A stretch of DNA of 47,048 nt, taken from NCBI GenBank assembly GCA_003614675.1, contig ML002289.1, forward strand, positions 1 through 47,048, read 5' to 3'. Positions 2,760-31,513 of this stretch are shown here, piece after piece. A program made the position numbers and the translations under genes. Each line of letters opens with the position of its first letter. Position 1 is the stretch's first letter. The notes below the pieces were generated by a model that searched no databases, was not told the origin of the DNA, and was given only the letters and a program-made list of their open reading frames with translations. The stretch comes from Dimargaris cristalligena. Taxonomy: Eukaryota.

Positions 2760-3104
2760 CTATTTTGGTGCAACGGTGGCCTTACCGCCTTTTTCGACTT
2801 TTTTGTCAATCGCCCTGGCCATCTTTTGGACGTTAGTCTTGGGAATCTTAACCTGTTTGCCGAAAGTCGCCGCTTTTTTGGAGGTGTTACCACTATTGAC
2901 ACCAATATTTCTTGGGGCCGGGGGCGATGAATCAACGGTGCCCTTACCACCAGCTTTCGTTGTGGGCAAAGCCCGGCGCACGAGAAGGACGGCAGATACT
3001 TGGGAGTGATGGTGGTCTGGGCCACTGGGCAGTGGATGGGCGAGAACCAGAGCCAGGGTCGCCGACGCGATCAGGGCGAGCGTGGTGGGGATAATGAAAT
3101 GCAT
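2760..3104 (-). CDS. Small secreted Lys-rich prepro-protein (114 aa)
   Basis: Intronless ATG ORF with a hydrophobic signal peptide (MHFIIPTTLALIASATLALVLA|HP), a pro-region ending in VRR, and a Lys/Gly-rich, Cys-free C-terminal part. It has a pyrimidine-rich 5' leader and TATAAATA about 220 bp upstream. Confidence 0.75.
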   Translation of the reverse strand: MHFIIPTTLALIASATLALVLAHPLPSGPDHHHSQVSAVLLVRRALPTTKAGGKGTVDSSPPAPRNIGVNSGNTSKKAATFGKQVKIPKTNVQKMARAIDKKVEKGGKATVAPK

Positions 3105-4603: not shown

Positions 4604-5912
4604 TGAAGAGAGAGTGTTAAGTGTTGATGTATTTTGAGGGAAAAAATTTAGTAATTATTAGTATTTTATTTTATTTTTATAGTAATCGTGAAGAGAATAG
4701 CAATTATGAACAAAGTATTGTTTTCCTGTTGCAGGAAGAGGGCTCCCTGAACAGAGGTCGCAAATCCGTTGTTATAAATAACACAGAATCTCTTTAACAG
4801 GTTTGAATACCGGCATAATATCATCACAACACATGGTCGTTAGCATGGATATAAAATAACAAAACGGGAGTTGACTTCCCAAAAGGAATGAAATATTTCT
4901 CATGAAATTCGCCATATCAGTTATAATCGCTAGTATTTGATAAAAAAAACAGTCGTAAGTATTGTAATTCTTTGATAATCGTCAAATCAACATAAGAATC
5001 GGCAGATAAATTGATAGCCGGATGGTAAAGGCTGTTGGCCGACATTCTCACAAAACTACAAAAGCACTCATAATAGGGTTTAGTTTTTAATTGGCCAAAG
5101 GAATAAACAGGCCGAATTTTCATTACGGGTGGGTTCCACGACCACCTCTCCTCCGGCTCACTCATTTTCGTTAATTCAGTTGATGAACAGGCAATAAGGC
5201 GGACTTTAAAACAAACAAACAAAAAAAAGGGTAAGGGATGTAGCAGCTCGTGCAGCACTAAAACTATACGCGTCTGTTTGTCTGACACTGAACAATTAAT
5301 CATTTTGGCCGGTGGAATTTTTAAATAGGGTTAATTGTCCGATGGAATGGGGTGGTGGGAGGTAGCTGGCGAACCACAGAGCAAGGGTACGTTATGTCAG
5401 AGACCCAAAGCAAATCGGAGAGGAGTTGGCTGGTAAATAGGAGGGGGGCCAATACAACCAAGCCCCCTGGTATTCCCCACTGCTTAATTATCGGATGGTT
5501 CTCTATATATTACATAGTATAGTAAAACGAATGATAGTAAAGAAGATTGCCGCCTTCGAACCCAAAGGCCCACAATCAAGGCCCGTTTCTTTATATTCAT
5601 GATATTAATGTTGGGTAGCCGATACATTCGATGGCCTAAATGGACTTATTGTACGTGATTTTCTCATTCATCCTCGACAGATGTTTTACCAGTGGTTGAA
5701 CTCTGCCTGACTGCTTACTAGTTTAACTACTAGCAGTTCCATCACACCCTCCCCTACTCTTGCATATCAGTACATTATACTATTTCTATTGTAATATATT
5801 TTTATCTATATTATTCTAGGATTCCTTATAGCAGCTTTACTGACCTGAATTGTTATTTTCCTGGTATCTAATCAGCCCCCACGACCTCCCATCCTCCCAA
5901 CTTGTTATACCA

Positions 5913-23158: not shown

Positions 23159-23458
23159 TTATTTGTTGATATTCATATTGGCGGCCCCCTTGGCGCGTTG
23201 GGCCTCGTCGGCAGCCTCGGCGGTTTGGTTGCCGGTCATGGAGTGGAAGGTGCTCTTGACGGCCCCGGAGACCTTATCGGCCAGACCTTCCATGTAGCCC
23301 TGGTTCTTGGCCTGGGTGTGTTCGGCCTGGCCCTGGGCGTTGCGAGCAGCGCCCTTGGCTTGCATGTTTTCGTTACCGAGGGTTTCGCCAACCTTCTGCT
23401 GGGCGCTGCCCATGGAGGCCTGGGTGCTGCCGTGGGTCTTGCTGGGGTCGGTCGACAT
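23159..23458 (-). CDS. CsbD-like / Hmp1-like small hydrophilic stress protein (99 aa)
   Basis: Two repeats of the CsbD-type unit (GSAQQKVGETLGNENMQAKGAARNAQGQAE; GAVKSTFHSMTGNQTAEAADEAQRAKGAA). Codon bias is strongly GC3, suggesting high expression. Confidence 0.85.
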   Translation of the reverse strand: MSTDPSKTHGSTQASMGSAQQKVGETLGNENMQAKGAARNAQGQAEHTQAKNQGYMEGLADKVSGAVKSTFHSMTGNQTAEAADEAQRAKGAANMNINK

Positions 23459-23903
23459 GGTGCGGAGAGTTAGAGTTAGAGAGGCGAAGGGTATAATAAG
23501 GGTGGAGGTAGAGGGGTTGGATGGTATCAGAAGTAGGTAGCAAATATAGGTGATGAGAGCTGTACAATCTAACCGAAGGGGTGGCGCTGCTGGGCTTTTA
23601 TGTGTTTATGGGCGCGGGCAGGAAGGTGAATCCCCCCGGGTCTAAGACCCCGTCCGCTGGTGGTGTAGATTGGGTGGTTTGACCCACCTCACTTAAACCT
23701 CATCTCTCTAAGGTCATCGTGGTTTGATTCAACTAGGTAAATGGGATCTAAACAGCAGAGCCCTCCCTCTCTCATGTTGACGGCCACCACCACTTCGGTT
23801 ATTGGTTACAAGCATACATAATAAATGCATCATCCGCCCCCTGTGACAAGCCCACATCTATCGAGTAAGCGTGCTGTCTTACTTCCCGATCGGAGGGAGT
23901 TTC

Positions 23904-24699
23904 ACGTCATCGAGACTGTGGTTCGGGAGACACCTTCGATTCTCTACGCCAGGGTCTCTCAATCACACGTCACTGACTCTCCCTCGTCTTCATGGACTCC
24001 GATCCAAGTGACGTACCAGATCTTCGGAATCGGTGGGTATTGCAGCACAGTAGCAAATATCCCCCGTCTATGCCTCTGGGCCTTTTATCAAGGAGCACCC
24101 CGATGAATGCTGAATTAACCGAACCCCAATCGAGTTACCTTCCGCAGCCATTCCAGCCGAAATGACGTTTCAGGCAAATACCCAGGGGGTACTGCAGTAG
24201 GTTCATTGCTCTTTGGTAAAAGGGAACACATCCACTACTTCAACCCCTAAAATATTTCGATGGGCTATTTGCCCAATAATAACGTAGAGGTATGTGATGT
24301 CAGTCTGGTTCAGCAGCCAATAAGCGGCATCAATTAGGCTGCCCCTTGAAAACGATATAGCCTGATATGGATTGGCTAGACTGCATCCTAGTAGAGTTTA
24401 CCACAACCCCTGTGAATGCAAACAAGCAACGTCATTAAAGCGGTCACCTGACGCCGCAACAGATAATAATTCAGTCGTTGTCGTCTTATTCGGCCCTATG
24501 CAGGTCGCCGAAGCCGAGGCAATGGCGTTTGCTGACGGAATAACGGGGTTGTCCATTCTACAGCTGAAGTCGGGCAATCGTCGTTTATCTACAGTTGGCG
24601 TCATGTCTATACCACTCACTGATTTAACGGCAACAGCCAAATATGGCATTTCTAGAGGGGATCAGGCACCATCGAAACTACCGAACCGTAATTACGTCA
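23904..24699. promoter_or_regulatory. Cluster of six CRE/ATF-like TGACGT sites upstream of the CsbD-like gene
   Basis: TGACGT or ACGTCA at 23904, 23967, 24009, 24163, 24429 and 24694, plus several STRE-like CCCCT/AGGGG sites between 23512 and 24346. Confidence 0.5.
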
Positions 24700-27600
24700 T
24701 TCACAGTGGGATCGCAATGGCGGAGGTCATTATTATCTGACAGTTACTGGAAAGAACGGTGGGGTTGCTGTATGATTATAGGAGGTCTACAACTGACTGC
24801 ACCCAAGACAGGACGGAGTGGGAGATATCGCGAAAATACCGGGATGAAACCAATCCCCGGTTTGGGTTTGGATGCTAAAAGAATAGACATGAAATGATGC
24901 TGATGCAAGCACAGTAGGTAAACCTTCCCTAGTAAGCCAATTTTCACTCTGCCATACGGGTTAACCCACGGTTAAAGCTGCTGGCGTAGGTTCGGGCTCA
25001 TTTTCAAGGGAGTAGGTACCACCACCACCCATCCAGCTTCGCCCTTACCCCCAAAAGGCTGCATTATTGACTACCATGCCCTTTGGTTACGGTAGGAAAC
25101 ATTCTTCCCATATAACTTAAGCTACTGTGGCATACCGGATAGTAAATAAATGTCGAATTGGCAGCGTCAATAACCTCAAACCCCACTGCCAGCCAAGTCC
25201 AAAGGGTGGTTTAACGCGCCACTGTCGGGCATAATAATGCATGCCATAGATCCAACCTGACCCCTAATCGAAAAATCACCTTTCAATGTGTAGGACCAAG
25301 CCGGGTTTAAAAAATATACACGTTATGCTCCCATTTGCGTTTCACCCAATGCCCCGTAGGCCTCGGCCAAACTCACATACTACATGTTAATCGCAACTCC
25401 AACAGTAAATTATAGCCCCCTGAATCCAGTTTGCAGCGAAATTAACCTATCTTTCAGTTTCGAGACACTCCAAGTGGAACATGTCTGTGAATCATTTCGT
25501 TGGCCAAGTCTAACGCTAGGTGATATCGATAGAGTCGGGAGTCATCTGTATTAGGCGAGTGGGATTATCTAGCCGGTATATCGGAAACTCCAAAACTAGA
25601 CAAATTCTGAAATATCTATTTTTGATAGCAATATTCTCTACCTTACAGCCCCATCAGTTCTATCCTGATCGAGATACCCAAATCACCTTGTAATAAAAAA
25701 CCCCTTCCAAAACTCCTCAACATTAAGTGTGGACTATCATTCAATTGTCCATCTCCTTAGTTATACGCCAGGGACACCGAGCTTCCACCTGTCCATTTCC
25801 AGAGAAACAGTAAGGCAGAATTGAGCATGTATACGTGGGCGGGGTCCGGGTAAACTCGACATGGAGTACTGTGTCGGTCCATATGTGGAGTACACTAGTA
25901 AAGGGCTTATCGTTGGGATACCTGTTAACTAAGCCTGGCCATGAACCCACGCAATATCTTTCTTTGGTGGATTTATCTATTGGATTGCACTATTAGAGGA
26001 ATAGGGAGGAGTCTCGCCTTCATATTAGGCGATTCATCCTCAATAAATGCCAAGTGAGCCAATCAGTAGCATCATTCCTCCCCCAACATCGACAATGTTT
26101 ACAAATCACAGGTTTCAACGGTTGAAGGCAGAATATGTCCATAAAACACCGATATATTCCGGTTTTATTCGTTTAGCTTCTCTGGATATAACGATAACCG
26201 TTTCTTAACATAGAATTTGTTAAGATTGCCACTTGCTGTTGCCTATCCAGTTCCTCAACAAACGGAAATGTGCAAAGATGATTGTATATGGAAATACCGC
26301 TCCCCAAGTCTGCTATAAATCATTTTAAACAACACACCACCCACTCAGGTTATATAAATAGAAGCTTGAAAATCAATAATACTTGAATGATTAAGCCGAC
26401 CGCAATGGCATATCCGTATTAGGCCAGCGAAAAAACTCAACGACTGAACAGGTGGCACTAGAGTGGGGTGATTTACTATCACTATAAAGAGGTGTGAAGC
26501 CCTGCATGGCCCGTTTGACCAGTCGTTTACACTAAGATCTCCAGTCGGATGTAACCACGGACAACTCTAAAAGTTCGTAGCATCATTCATCGCCTGTAGG
26601 CAAACTGGCTGTTTTAGGGTCTGACAAATGGAAGTAACTGGCCAGGAATCCCCCATACACTCAGAGTCGGATGCTACTCCGCTTTTTTTTATCCGTCAAT
26701 TAATAATGGGCCGTCGTGGGTCATGGGAGCAAACCCTAGTTTAATATAAAGTTTAGGAAATTCCATCCAGTGTGTGACCCTCAGCTATTAGGCAGGGACT
26801 GCGTATTGTCGATCCCATATGGTAGTAATGTGGATGTAGTGTATAGAGGGTGGGTCAGGCCAGGATGCCGCTACGAACCGAGTAATTCAACATTGATGAT
26901 CAGGCCAAAAACAGAGTAATCCTTGGACTGGAAGTCCAGGGGGTAGATATGCATTTATATATATATATATATATATAAGTAGCCAATTCTGGTTTCCGCC
27001 CAAGTGCATTTTATAAAGAGTTGATTCTAGACGACAGTGCCATTTACAAAAATTACTTCCACAAACTAACGCGTTCGCGATGGCATCCTTAGTTGTATTG
27101 GAAAGGACAAAGTAAATTCTCCTTATTGAGGATCTTCAGACCCGGCCGAATTAGCTAATTACTCATATTGGCCTTGAGCTCAAATCAGAAAATGTCCGTC
27201 CAAAATTGGCAATAGCTTAATATTCCCACCCCACTGTAGCGCACCCGTTCTCCAAGTACTTCCCCACCCCACTCGGCCAAACATGAAGGCCGCTAACACT
27301 ACGATGGCCCGTTGACACTCGAAACAAATTCAACCTGTTTCATTTTTACCAACTATTGTTTGACAAGGAGCTTTACTGTACAAGGTTGATATAGTGGTGG
27401 GATAATCCGCCTTAGTACTCATGTTTAGGCGGTACCTTAGGGTAAGTACCACCCTGATGGCCATTTATTGACACTGGTGTCCTATTAGGGACCGACAACG
27501 ATACATTAAACATAGTGGGAATATAGTCGTTAAAGCGGGATCCAGTGTCGCTGAATGGTGATACTCCAGTCCAATACTCGTAAGGGTAAAGTCTAGGGTC

Positions 27601-28517
27601 TCTCGGTATGGCCCCCACTTACGCAACTGTTAGCTCAGTCATTTTCTGTAGGGACCGAGAGCGGGCCGCCTACATAGTGAGCCCCAACATCACCCGACCA
27701 TTTTTACGCAGCCCATTCCTCATAAAGACCAAGGAAGACAGTGGCGACTATGAGTTGACTGTTAAGCCCTTTTAAAGCGCAAGGGAGTAGACCATTTTTA
27801 GATTGTCTATATATCAATCAATGCCGAGTAAAGAGAGTGCACAACTCCCCAGGGTAACTACTGTTGTGCTTCATTTCACGACCAGGGTAGAACAAGGAAG
27901 CGCTGTGTATGGCTGCCAACTCTATGAAGTGTTGGTGATCAAGTGGATCGCGGGAGGGTGATCTATACCCCTCCTCTTCCCCCTTTTTTCTTAGAGATGT
28001 AGCCGACTTTCCTTCCAGACACGGTTTGCCATTAAGAAATTATGCGTTGAAGCTGGCGGCTCAGGACATGCCGAAAATATGAGTGACGTTTCAGGTCGAT
28101 GAAGAGCCTAATAATGGACGCGCTTACAACCACTGGCTCCTTATACCTACCTGAATAAGCAATGCCAAAAAGAGAAATGTTGCATTGGTAGTTTAACCGT
28201 GAAGGTCAATCCTCGCTTTCCTTGTTTGGCTGCTGGTCAGTATGTCTTGAGACCCCTCCCCTCTTCTCACCATCCCGCAAAATTAACCTACAGCCGGCGA
28301 TTTTTGAGGTGCCATTCCCAGTCAGAGCGAATCCCGTTAAAAGCATAAATACCGACGGCTTTCCGCCACTACCGAACTATATCAAATCCCATCTTCTTCA
28401 ATCCCACCGGCTCATCTCTAGCACATTACCACCGCGTTTCGCATTCCAATCTCTCTTTGGCACCCCACACCCACACCCACTCACATTACCCACTCCCCAC
28501 CTGTCCTATCTTCTACC

Positions 28518-28709
28518 ATGGTCTCCCTTCGTTTCGCCGTTGTCGTTGTTCTCGCCGTCGCCTTAGTGGCTGTCCAGGCCCACCCCGTCCAAGACAATGT
28601 TCCCGATCTTTCCAAGCGCCAAATGGAAGGCGGCCCCGGCGATGATGGTAACGGTACCGGCCCCGGCTGGAGCTCCTGCTGGAACGGCAGCTGGTGGATG
28701 CCCTGCTAA
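28518..28709 (+). CDS. Secreted prepro-peptide (63 aa): signal peptide, pro-region, Kex2 KR site, 29-aa Gly/Trp/Cys-rich mature peptide
   Basis: MVSLRFAVVVVLAVALVAVQA|HPVQDNVPDLSKR|QMEGGPGDDGNGTGPGWSSCWNGSWWMPC*. It has an ACCATGG Kozak context, strong C-ending codon bias, a CATAAATA box at ~28344 and C/T-rich UTRs like other genes here. Confidence 0.82.
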   Translation: MVSLRFAVVVVLAVALVAVQAHPVQDNVPDLSKRQMEGGPGDDGNGTGPGWSSCWNGSWWMPC

Positions 28710-29602
28710 GCACCAGGCCACGGTGGTACGATGATCTCCCTCGACCTCATCCTCATCCCCGTCCTATCCTTCCTCCACCTCTCCTCTCCTCTCACTTTAT
28801 CACTTTCTCCCCTTTTACCCTCCTCACTCTAATGACCTGACGAAAGTACGATTAATAATTATTACGCTTCGGGGTATTGTTGATTATCTTAGATAGAAAC
28901 GCCAATACTCTACATAACTTCGATTACTCACCCTTCCCATCCTAATTTGTACATGTATGGATGTGTTATTAATTGGCTCATATATTCGACCCATCCTGCC
29001 GGGGTTTCATGCCTTCTCTGTTATATTCCAATAAACTAATTACAAAATACTATTGGGCTGTTTTAATAGTATTGAATAGGTATGCATATACACCCCAACC
29101 CTCTACACACATTATCATTAGGCCCTGCTTAGCCGACCTACTTCCATGTCGTAGCTTAGACAATAGTAACTTATTCGACCCTTATAGGGGGTAGATTTCG
29201 AGTGTTACGGATGTTAGATTGGCATCGAATATCAGAGAACAATGGCGCTGACTCGCATAGCTCTGTATATTTCTGGGGCACTCTCTTTTCATTTCCTTTT
29301 CAAAACTCGTTTTATATATATAATAGGGAAGGGTCTAGCGCCTAATATCGAACTGGGTTAAAATAACTCAGGTCTAATGTTCATCAAATCCGGGACATAA
29401 TGAGGGGGTGAGATGCTTGTTAAATGGATAAAACCTGATCAGCGATCTGTAGGTATAGTATATTGACGGGCTAGGTCTGGGAGAGTCTCTCGGGAGGCCA
29501 GGTCTTGTTGGCCAAGCTAACCGGTTAGATACAATGCCTGAGAAAACGGACTGACTTCTATTTACTTATATCGACTCGGCAAGAGCGGATATTTCGATTC
29601 GC

Positions 29603-31513
29603 TCAATACCTCCGAACCGCCGGCGGCGGCGGCGGCGGTGGCGGTGGTGGTGGTGGGGGAGAAGGAGATGCAGGTGGAGGAGGGGGAACGGATGAAATCA
29701 CTTGCTGGTCTGATTCGGATTCAAAATCAGCCTGTCCATCCACCGTAGACTGATCCGCTGGCGGAGGCGATGGGGGTAAATCAGGAGAAGGGGGAGGAGA
29801 AGAGGGAGGGGGTATAGAAGCCCGGTCCGACAAAGAAAAGGGGTCCAGCATATCCGGGCGCCGCTTTTCGGGGAGAGTAATGGTGTCCCCCGGGGCTGGA
29901 GCCGTTGCATCTCCCACATAAGTATCTAAGAAGGCGTTTTCGCTATCAATCGCATCAGCCCTGCCCAGGGCAAAGTCTTTCGCAAAAATATCATCGCCAA
30001 TCACAGTGTAGTACAAGTCCTCGGCCCGGGAAGTGACGTCGAGATTATAATCGTTGGGCAGTCCGATTAGGTGCCTACGAAACGCCTTGGAGAGTTTCTT
30101 GAAATCTGGGTTAGGCCCACTGGCCGTATCATTAAGGCGGTCAAACCAGTGGATCAGCGTGGTACTGACTTGTTGAAATTTAGAGCCATAGAACATAATC
30201 GTATCTACGAAAACGCGGAGAAGGGCAGCGGCTTGGTAACGCTCCCACATGAGACACATCATAAAAAAACCGAGATATTCTAAAGGGGCAAAGGGTCGGA
30301 TGTCATTGCGAGGTAGATCACGGGAGCCCAACTCCCGGTTGATTAGGAGAAGCTCCCATAAAGTCGCCACATCGTCGACGAGAATAGCGGCCCGAATACA
30401 GTCGGTTAGCACTATAAATCCGGTCACCTCCAGCAGGACGGATTCCTCGCTACCTATCAAGTTGAAACCGTCGCCCATGGTTTGTAGACGTGAATGGATA
30501 ATATCCACGGCTAGACCCCCGCGCTTTTCAAAAACCAGCATAGCGGACATGTGGGCCCGCCGGGTTTGCGGATCCCGAATATCCGGGATGCGTTTGATAT
30601 ATTTTTCCAAAATTGCTTTGCCCCGGAGGGGAGCGTAGTAGTTTTCGTCGAGATTGTAAATCACGTGCCGCAATTTGTCCTCGGGCCCCGTTTGGATGAG
30701 TTTCCGTAAGTTTTGGTAGTGCTGAGTGTCCGTCGTTTTGGAAATGTAATTGGCAAAGTCATCTTTACTCTAATGTACGAAAGAGGAAATGGGTTGGATA
30801 GTAGGAATATTAGGGACCGAGTTAGTGAACCTTGGTCTATAGGATGGGCAATTAAGGAAGGTCGGATTAACGGGCGTTGAATACAAAATAGTAACACTAA
30901 GGATAGCTACTAGGTCTCTCCGTTGTAACTAATTGTGAAATGGGGGTATATGGTAGGGCCATTAACCATAATTAAATTTTAGAAGTCGTACTAAATATAG
31001 GCAACACTGACCAAGCATCGCTTGGAAATATTGCCAAGATGGCCCGTACTGCCCTGTCGGACCCCCAGACTATAGAAAGGCACTTTCACTTACTCGATTT
31101 ATCAAGTTTTCCTCGTATTCTGTGCGTTCCGTGACGAAGACACTCAGGACAGTCGGATATTTAAAAAGTTCAATGACCGAGGAAGGTAGGTCGTCCAACA
31201 CCAGTGCGTCCAAGGGGATGGTATACGCTTCGCTGTACGTGGGAAGAGACTCGGCTTGGCCAGTGGGGTCTGCCTCCGGCTGGGGATGGTAAACCACCCG
31301 GCGGGGAAATGTCCTGTCTTGCGACCGAGCAATGGATGTCCCGTACGTGGGTAACCCGCGGGGGTCTTCAGTGGAATAGTCGCCCAACTTATTTACACTC
31401 AGGTGTTCCATCGATGGCTCGCTGAGTCCTTTTTCCAAATTGCCTAGGGCACTGCCTGACATATTGGCAAAATAGAGACTGGCTAAAAATATACTATAAG
31501 TAAAATAAGCCAT
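29603..31513 (-). CDS. Secreted effector-like protein, ~528 aa, with LPxY motifs and a polyproline tail (exons 31513-31094, 30769-29603)
   Basis: N-terminal signal-like sequence MAYFTYSIFLASLYFANMSGSALG. A gtaagt donor and cattag acceptor join the two ORFs in phase 0 (ENLINR|SKDDFANY...KLRHVIY). The C-terminus is Pro-rich. Confidence 0.75.

Follow-up and report, generated by a model that had tools for sequence, protein, structure and literature searches.

Kex2-released secreted peptides of fungi

Several groups of fungal secreted proteins are cut from a precursor by the Kex2 protease; the papers that describe them are cited here by PMC number, on the basis of excerpts. Kex2-processed pro-domain (K2PP) effectors and other Kex2-released peptides of biotrophic fungal parasites have a signal peptide, a short disordered pro-piece, and an L-x-x-R/KR site with K, R, or P at P2 and an aliphatic residue at P4 (PMC8528282). 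The KEPs are likewise cut by Kex2 from secretory precursors, with repeated cores; many of their products are pyroglutamated, and they form lineage-specific families without assigned function (PMC6339444, PMC7329392, PMC9769878). Coprinopsis in which six KEP genes had been knocked out showed no phenotype in axenic culture, from which the authors infer a role in biotic interactions (PMC9769878). In Ustilago maydis, a single Rep1 precursor yields 11 peptides (PMC3133707). The alpha-type pheromones of ascomycetes (MF-alpha, Ppg1/Ccg-4) are also released by Kex2, from precursors with repeats and Ste13 X-A/X-P spacers, while the precursors of dikaritins have a UstYa gene nearby. Copsin and the CPP-type peptides are antimicrobial peptides of fungi that Kex2 cleaves (mentioned in PMC9769878). 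Their precursors consist of a signal, a pro-piece, and a Kex2 site, and they occur as paralogues. They are folded, cationic, multi-disulfide defensins, and copsin carries an N-terminal pyroglutamate.

Among early-diverging fungi, the known pheromones are trisporoids and sesquiterpenes, not peptides, according to the excerpts of PMC3834313. The Dimargaritales are haustorial biotrophic parasites of Mucoromycota and Ascomycota and are rich in subtilases (PMC9866270, in excerpt); the cell-level host interaction of Zoopagomycota as a whole is described as little known in the parts of PMC9391592 at hand. Here we describe what is apparently a hitherto undescribed Dimargaritales family of secreted peptide precursors, starting from one short gene of Dimargaris cristalligena.

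The locus and its precursor

The window, that is, the whole stretch of DNA analysed, comprises 47,048 nucleotides of contig ML002289.1 (assembly GCA_003614675.1). On its forward strand, a single-exon CDS at 28518–28709, closed by a TAA at 28707–28709, encodes a precursor of 63 amino acids. Residues 1–21 (28518–28580) are the predicted signal peptide, judging from a hydrophobic N-terminus, a helix over residues 3–20 in the AlphaFold model, and an Ala21 that occurs in 16 of 16 aligned family members. The 13-residue pro-piece that follows (residues 22–34; 28581–28619) ends in a Kex2-type L-x-K-R. The predicted mature N-terminus is a pyroglutamate-capable head, Q-[MLI]-[EST]-G-G (28620–28634), which is continued by a Gly/Asp-rich linker (28635–28661) with an N-glycosylation sequon at 28650–28658, and by a Trp-rich tail (28662–28706) with a second sequon at 28683–28691. 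The tail contains a C-x8-C motif (Cys codons 28677–28679 and 28704–28706) whose second Cys is the final residue. The core of 29 amino acids (residues 35–63) thus begins with Gln, holds eight Gly, four Trp, and two N-x-S/T sequons, and has a net charge of −3. Our translation is identical to that in the initial annotation, so the layout given there (signal, 13-residue KR pro-piece, 29-residue core starting with Gln, four Trp, C-x8-C, two sequons) stands. The AlphaFold model of the precursor is of low confidence (mean pLDDT 60.9), with low pLDDT beyond residue 21; the cores are disordered in the model and have no predicted fold.

A TATA-like box, the putative promoter, is at 28344–28350 (forward strand), 174 nt 5′ of the ATG, and a putative AATAAA polyadenylation-like signal is at 29030–29035 on the same strand. 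The locus is also present in a DNA run of a separate study, with five differences over 2.6 kb, just one of them, synonymous, in the CDS; three further runs with contigs at the locus may themselves be the origin of the present DNA and are left out of account. The strong codon bias noticed at the outset is borne out by a codon adaptation of 0.55 against an expected 0.335, a value matched in 2 of 2000 simulations; the reference was PGK and porin of the same genome, and the expectation came from 11 background ORFs.

The initial annotation also described about 5 kb of apparently gene-free DNA upstream, and this description is sound: in 23462–28517, a stretch without a detectable gene from which short-exon genes could nevertheless escape, the longest ORF is not above 124 codons, the three ORFs scanned have no Pfam match, and the window gives no Rfam or tRNA match. 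Since 7456 genes share 31 Mb in this species, about 4 kb each on average (PMC9391592 supplement, in excerpt), the gap is long but not extreme. On the far side of it, a divergent ORF at 23159–23461 (reverse strand) encodes a CsbD-like small stress protein whose Pfam score is below the family cut-off. The other window ORFs with Pfam matches are housekeeping genes: a WD40 protein (dynein intermediate chain-like in our own reading), ERG4/ERG24, Dus, BRE, SNRNP27, UBX, and a CSN8/PSMD8 protein.

Three further observations concern the window. A small ORF of 114 amino acids at 2763–3104 (reverse strand) also looks secreted: it has a signal peptide, a pro-piece that contains His, the Kex2-type site L-V-R-R, and a tail of basic character, but no Pfam family above cut-off. 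Convergent with the peptide gene, a 388-codon frame at 29603–30769 (reverse strand) has a Pro-rich C-terminus, no Pfam match, and a codon adaptation of 0.22, the lowest of the ORFs scored; it is perhaps a lineage-specific protein. Around the peptide gene, no notable repeats were found. Two short segments that flank the gene, 27168–27185 and 29084–29106, are matched by one other contig each, at a spacing of about 3.8 kb in two runs, and are possibly old repeat remnants or chance matches.

Public gene models

The gene had been thought too short for most gene callers. This does not hold, as the exact 63-residue sequence is present in NCBI as a called gene and the locus is annotated in addition as RKP39214.1, a model of 118 amino acids that has the same stop and an extra 5′ exon (27608–27676, forward strand) joined to 28422 across the TATA-like box. 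That exon would bury the signal peptide. The paralogues described below align from the 28518 ATG, and the upstream DNA of the 28518 gene matched none of them; the exon is probably false and no part of the real gene. The public models of other copies (P0005, P0007–P0010, P0016, and P0017) are extended or spliced differently, and the spliced ones run into 3′ DNA that varies among paralogues. We read these models as mis-spliced or extended, masking the signal peptide or the Trp-rich tail. Because the longer models are read as mis-calls, one outcome that had been named as fatal to the initial proposal, that the ORF would prove to be exon 1 of a longer known protein, did not arise. A bacterial-type protein of 1395 amino acids (P0020) that fell into one sequence cluster was set aside as a clustering artefact.

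Dispersed paralogues under purifying selection

A six-frame search of the D. cristalligena genome (30.65 Mb in 2220 contigs) found 13 matches, spread over 12 contigs, and three more members occur in Dispira; the gene, first taken for an orphan, belongs to a family. All 13 copies are intact single-exon ORFs of 57–67 amino acids with a common layout. The 12 paralogues keep frame, start, and stop, their indels are in frame, and in all 13 genes the stop directly follows the Trp-rich tail. An allelic origin was considered and rejected: the copies are paralogues because even the closest pairs have flanks only about 79% alike, and the two copies of one pair sit together on a single contig. On contig C178 of this genome (G000), two members with identical cores, at 5634–5810 (forward strand) and 26496–26672 (reverse strand), are 21 kb apart and inverted, and about 1.7 kb of their upstream DNA is 79% alike.

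The number 13 is a lower bound. Scanning for R-Q-x-x-G-G gave 84 matches (73 in the control), 76 of which were read, the remaining eight being known members; the 76 contained no 14th short member, and the scan yielded two I9-like genes to which we return below. Scanning for Q-x-x-G-G-[PS] gave 102 matches (102 in the control), and no secreted family member was found among the 40 chosen new ones that were read.

The family is under purifying selection. Its dN/dS (Nei–Gojobori) is 0.28 over six disjoint pairs and 0.26–0.29 across four pair sets; by region, it is lowest over residues 35–48 (0.09–0.20), compared with 0.33–0.56 in the pro-piece and 0.29–0.50 in the tail. Four members (L001–L004) have near-identical cores despite many synonymous changes and codon adaptation values of 0.55–0.64, as expected of a product needed in bulk.

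The 63-residue ORF is a real single-exon gene. That it has no function of its own and is an ORF arisen by chance, a piece of a repeat, or one exon of something longer could be argued from those copies whose public models are longer or differently spliced, but we consider this extremely unlikely: the dN/dS in all four pair sets, the exclusively in-frame indels, the constant position of the stop, and the conservation in two genera speak against it, the spliced models enter 3′ DNA that differs among paralogues, and a weak search among 8000 candidates found no longer or repeat-bearing homologue.

The neighbours of the 12 paralogues, in stretches of 3–10 kb, are unrelated (MARVEL, PDT, GINS, PGK, C2H2, MINDY, NUDIX, and ORFs without a family), and no gene common to these surroundings was found. 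In 9 of the 12 paralogues, the upstream region is free of ORFs of at least 150 amino acids over a length that ranges from 2.3 kb to 5.1 kb or more; of the other three, one holds only an unassigned 187-residue ORF and two reach contig ends. A TATA-like motif occurs at −119 to −174 in 9 of the 13 family genes, at −227 in one, and only at about −20 in another, while the pattern used found none in the remaining two. A search for k-mers common to 11 promoters yielded nothing significant after correction over 2020 tests (best 2.7e-5). As a side observation, the ORF L036:7377–8087 (forward strand), situated 2.3 kb downstream from the member on contig C77, looks secreted and has several KR/RR sites in short repeats and no Pfam match; it could be a KEP-type precursor.

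This dispersal bears on the proposal that the peptide is a RiPP precursor, in which a tailoring enzyme encoded elsewhere in the genome would recognise the head and then crosslink or cyclise the tail with its Trp, Cys, and Gly. A conserved head with a variable Trp-rich tail does recall a leader with its core, and the N-terminal Gln is accompanied by a C-terminal Trp in 7 of 16 members, a combination that presumably recalls the plant lyciumin-type peptides. UstYa/DUF3328 (PF11807), however, had no genome-wide match in a search whose control was blank, and none was present in 13 paralogue-flanking ORFs scanned or in 11 ORFs of the window. Unlike the dikaritins, the family has no cluster: its genes are dispersed among unrelated housekeeping genes without a common neighbour, and a clustered pathway, one form of the RiPP suggested initially, finds no support. 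The precursors have no repeats, and the head is kept on folded proteins. A RiPP with unlinked enzymes is in our estimate very unlikely.

Conserved and variable parts of the family

Invariant columns were sought in an alignment of 16 members, namely 12 of the 13 D. cristalligena copies, one D. cristalligena database protein, and three Dispira proteins, whereas the counts of cleavage sites, identities, and sequons refer to the 13 copies plus the three Dispira proteins. Six columns are invariant: Met1, Ala21, Arg34, Gln35, Gly38, and Gly39. At the Kex2-type site, P1 is Arg in 16 of 16, P4 is Leu or Val in 15 and Met in one, and P2 is Lys in 11, Pro in 4, and Arg in one, a pattern covered by the extended Kex2 motif in the excerpts of PMC8528282, PMC6258133, and PMC3777899. 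Between genera, identity is 0.67 over core residues 1–6, 0.42 over residues 7–14, and 0.23 over residues 15–22, and it is 0.08 in the pro-piece. A conserved core beside a variable pro-region is what homologues were predicted to display.

The Cys loop is not the defining motif that it was taken for. C-x8-C is present in 8 of the 13 D. cristalligena copies, hence in 8 of 16 members, C-x4-C in one, and four copies have no Cys; none of the three Dispira proteins has a loop. In the aligned sequences, the invariant feature of the family is instead the Kex2-type site followed by Q-[MLI]-[EST]-G-G. The linker sequon is found in 13 of 16 members, at core position 8, 9, or 11 and with G, D, or S as the middle residue, where shuffled sequences would give 1.5. 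Because the members are kin and not independent, this frequency suggests, but does not prove, that N-glycosylation of the linker has been selected.

Each of the 16 precursors has one core. Core length is 29 amino acids in 9 of the 13 copies, and the mature product ranges from 22 to 29 residues. All 13 cores have a net charge of 0 to −3 and 0–2 Cys, which lends no support to a cationic antimicrobial peptide, one form of the antimicrobial role that the initial annotation mentioned. From copsin and the CPP-type peptides, which they resemble in precursor layout, the family members differ in being neutral to acidic, with 0–1 disulfide and no predicted fold.

The cores are of low complexity (5–12 Gly, 2–4 Trp) and, as noted, disordered in the AlphaFold model. 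These properties, together with high copy number and codon adaptation, would suit a structural surface peptide, repellent-like or adhesive in the manner of Ustilago Rep1. The family's Gly/Trp-rich products would then form assemblies on the surface of hyphae, spores, or appressoria and confer hydrophobicity or attachment. Rep1 is processed by Kex2 into fibril-forming surface peptides (PMC8528282; PMC3133707), and hydrophobin candidates are reported in only one of six Zoopagomycota genomes in a preprint whose available portion does not name Dimargaris (bioRxiv 10.1101/2022.08.19.504535). Both Rep1 and the present family give secreted, probably abundant peptides, but each precursor of the present family has one core, its head is fixed, a sequon is present, and repeat architecture is absent. 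A fibril-former could do with less specific features than a five-residue head that never varies, a core of 29 residues in 9 of 13 copies, and a tail able to form a disulfide, and a glycan on the linker would hinder packing. We regard a surface role as unlikely.

In the tree, the Dispira proteins are split from the Dimargaris copies with support of 100/99, and 1 of 13 inner branches is well supported. The split suggests that the family expanded separately in Dispira and in Dimargaris.

Taxonomic range

Two profile searches of 5.8 billion proteins gave 11 matches each, and one of 1.84 billion representatives gave nine matches at E ≤ 0.001. Relatives were found only in D. cristalligena, Dispira simplex (IWQ61_001404), and Dispira parvispora (IWQ62_001327 and IWQ62_003132), and the family is apparently restricted to Dimargaritales, a range that rests on annotated proteins. 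It may be wider in truth, since tiny genes are often unannotated.

No Pfam family covers the precursors: the 16 members gave one weak, unrelated match, and none matches a Pfam pheromone family at E ≤ 1. With the 63-residue protein as sole query, a metagenome scan returned 600 pattern matches and no confirmed one; the ESM Atlas held no usable match for the precursor, and a PDB sequence search gave just chance matches at the level of the signal peptide. The hevein chitin-binding triad, the bacteriocin double-glycine leader, and the PIR repeat, and likewise the cystatin loop and the amatoxin and lyciumin cores, we take to be look-alikes with a loose fit. A full-text literature search with family motifs and identifiers found no description, and neither did searches by topic, subscription journals and among them the original genome paper being outside its scope, and one family motif was absent from the 11 supplementary files of PMC9391592 examined, two of them in part. 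The view that the family is undescribed is upheld to that extent. The published KEP tables list 11 KEPs for the species, and none of four family accessions checked is among them. Repeat-based KEP screens would miss the family because there is one core per precursor and dose comes from 13 dispersed genes.

The same head on I9-like secreted proteins

Two longer secreted ORFs retrieved by the motif scan have a signal–pro–R|Q-x-x-G-G-P junction as in the peptides. A third paralogue, found by homology and not by motif, keeps Q-L-E-G-G at 34% identity with Arg replaced by His. The three genes are L116:1154–1549 (reverse strand), L115:3124–3486 (forward strand), and L119:1007–1414 (reverse strand), on contigs C657, C357, and C25 of the same genome (G000). 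Their products have 121–136 amino acids and two conserved Cys. A profile comparison of the peptide family with these proteins aligned 37 N-terminal columns (E 3.2e-7, probability 93), a score inflated by partial circularity, the first two having been chosen by motif.

Beyond the head, the proteins have no Pfam match. Their remainder has an atlas score of 0.89 with I9 clusters on top, a pLDDT of about 90 in the AlphaFold core, and, among the top Foldseek rows, prodomains of PCSK9, fervidolysin, and subtilisin, with a best E of 0.0099. It is a probable stand-alone I9/subtilisin-propeptide fold, which we offer as a lead from predicted structures and not as an assignment. Since the signal–pro–R|QxxGG module is also found on these three secreted proteins, the Q-x-x-G-G head is a module borne by at least two kinds of payload.

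Processing enzyme and candidate receptors

The genome encodes a Kex2 orthologue (G000:C197), a 991-residue ORF with Peptidase_S8 and P_proprotein domains. The central proposal of the initial annotation, a real precursor of a Kex2-type secreted peptide in an early-diverging fungus, is supported.

Receptors were sought exon-wise in this fragmented genome, against prokaryotic controls, with a tool that did find the Kex2 and I9 domains. Ste2 had no match over cut-off, and Ste3 and 7tm_1 had none. The sole weak STE2 match, L023:1144–2325 (forward strand), has one predicted membrane helix and, in our own reading, a C-terminal RING-type Cys/His motif, and was rejected as a Ste2 receptor. Among the neighbouring ORFs that were scanned, none belongs to a receptor-like family. 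Class I (Ste2) receptors are reported only in Ascomycota in the excerpts of a review (PMC13308352).

These results bear on a role of the peptides in signalling within the species, be it as hormone, as mating pheromone, or as quorum or fusion signal. A non-Ste2 seven-helix receptor would sense them; the head would be the common activating message, and the Trp-rich tail would give specificity. The layout is typical of a ligand: the N-terminal Q-x-x-G-G does not vary, the aromatic tail does, and selection is purifying. The release by Kex2 is in common with the alpha-type pheromones, and the long upstream regions of 9 of 12 paralogues would accord with such a role. The absence of receptor matches is a weak negative, to which the reported confinement of class I receptors to Ascomycota may be added. 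There is, moreover, no upstream k-mer shared after correction and a single core without repeats, and the head is also found on folded I9-like proteins, which makes it less likely as a receptor message. In all, a signal of this kind, head and tail functions included, seems to us doubtful.

The alpha-type pheromones, with which the initial annotation had led, share with the family the Kex2 release, the richness in Trp, the N-terminal Gln, and, in one subtype, a two-Cys loop. Here, however, there is one core and no spacer, Q-[MLI] stands directly after the Arg, the Cys are dispensable, a glycosylation sequon is present, and neither a Pfam match nor a Ste2 over cut-off was found. The analogy is therefore not retained as the leading reading. 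The core is also, we presume, about two to three times as long as an alpha-type pheromone.

Proposed maturation and role

We propose that the precursor would enter the ER by its signal peptide and be N-glycosylated on the linker, that Kex2 would cut after L-x-[KRP]-R, and that the exposed Gln35 would cyclise to pyroglutamate, a modification known on Kex2-released fungal peptides (PMC9769878, in excerpt). In the loop subtype, the tail would close as a disulfide loop before bulk secretion. This path is, in our assessment, very probably correct. The mature product would be a protected, flexible, neutral-to-acidic (glyco)peptide of 22–29 residues whose head is constant and whose Trp-rich tail varies, its dose raised through gene copy number and optimal codons and not through tandem repeats.

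What the peptides do is a more tentative matter. It may be, though we hold this with less than even confidence, that they are a secreted host-interface payload of the mycoparasite, released in bulk at the interface with the host (or a competitor) in the manner of an effector. The Trp-rich tail would then bind a wall, membrane, or protein target of the host, and the head would be a maturation or anchoring module common to the peptides and the I9-like protease inhibitors. The layout is that of the K2PP effectors and of the peptides that other parasitic fungi release through Kex2, as described in the excerpts of PMC8528282: a predicted signal peptide, a disordered pro-piece with a Kex2-type site, and a Kex2 gene in the genome. 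The K2PP effectors are folded, whereas here one Gly/Trp peptide of 22–29 residues is released and the host is a fungus; the invariant mature N-terminal head, common to another protein family, is also peculiar to the present case, and there is no sequence relation to described effectors.

We slightly favour this extracellular host-interface role over a mating signal, because the family tracks a mycoparasitic order and appears to have expanded separately in two genera, and because it is built for dose and has its head in common with inhibitor-like secreted proteins. Several points count against the host-interface role. The core dN/dS of 0.1–0.5 is purifying, not diversifying, unlike that of an arms-race effector, and fits a self-signal. 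Pheromone genes, too, are typically amplified to raise dose. The Dimargaritales-only range may reflect sparse annotation of tiny genes elsewhere, and the I9 assignment behind the argument from a shared module is only a lead from structural models. It is tempting to go further and see in the pyroglutamate-x-x-Gly-Gly head a portable address tag for the Trp-rich peptides and the I9-like inhibitors, but this is a long shot, and so is the RxLR/PEXEL-like routing of payloads to the haustorial interface, or through it into the host fungus, that such a tag would bring, by analogy, to mind.

Significance

Kex2 screens that look for repeats are bound by their design to overlook peptides of this class, and gene callers often mis-splice the genes. 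The family offers 13 defined, synthesisable variants with a fixed head and an optional glycan and disulfide, which allow a direct test of whether an early-diverging mycoparasite uses such peptides as effectors on its host or as signals on itself. If they are directed at the host, the peptides could be leads against moulds. If they are directed at the fungus itself, they would constitute a peptide signalling system outside Dikarya; a hormone or pheromone system of that kind, working without Ste2, is the less expected outcome and one that we think doubtful.
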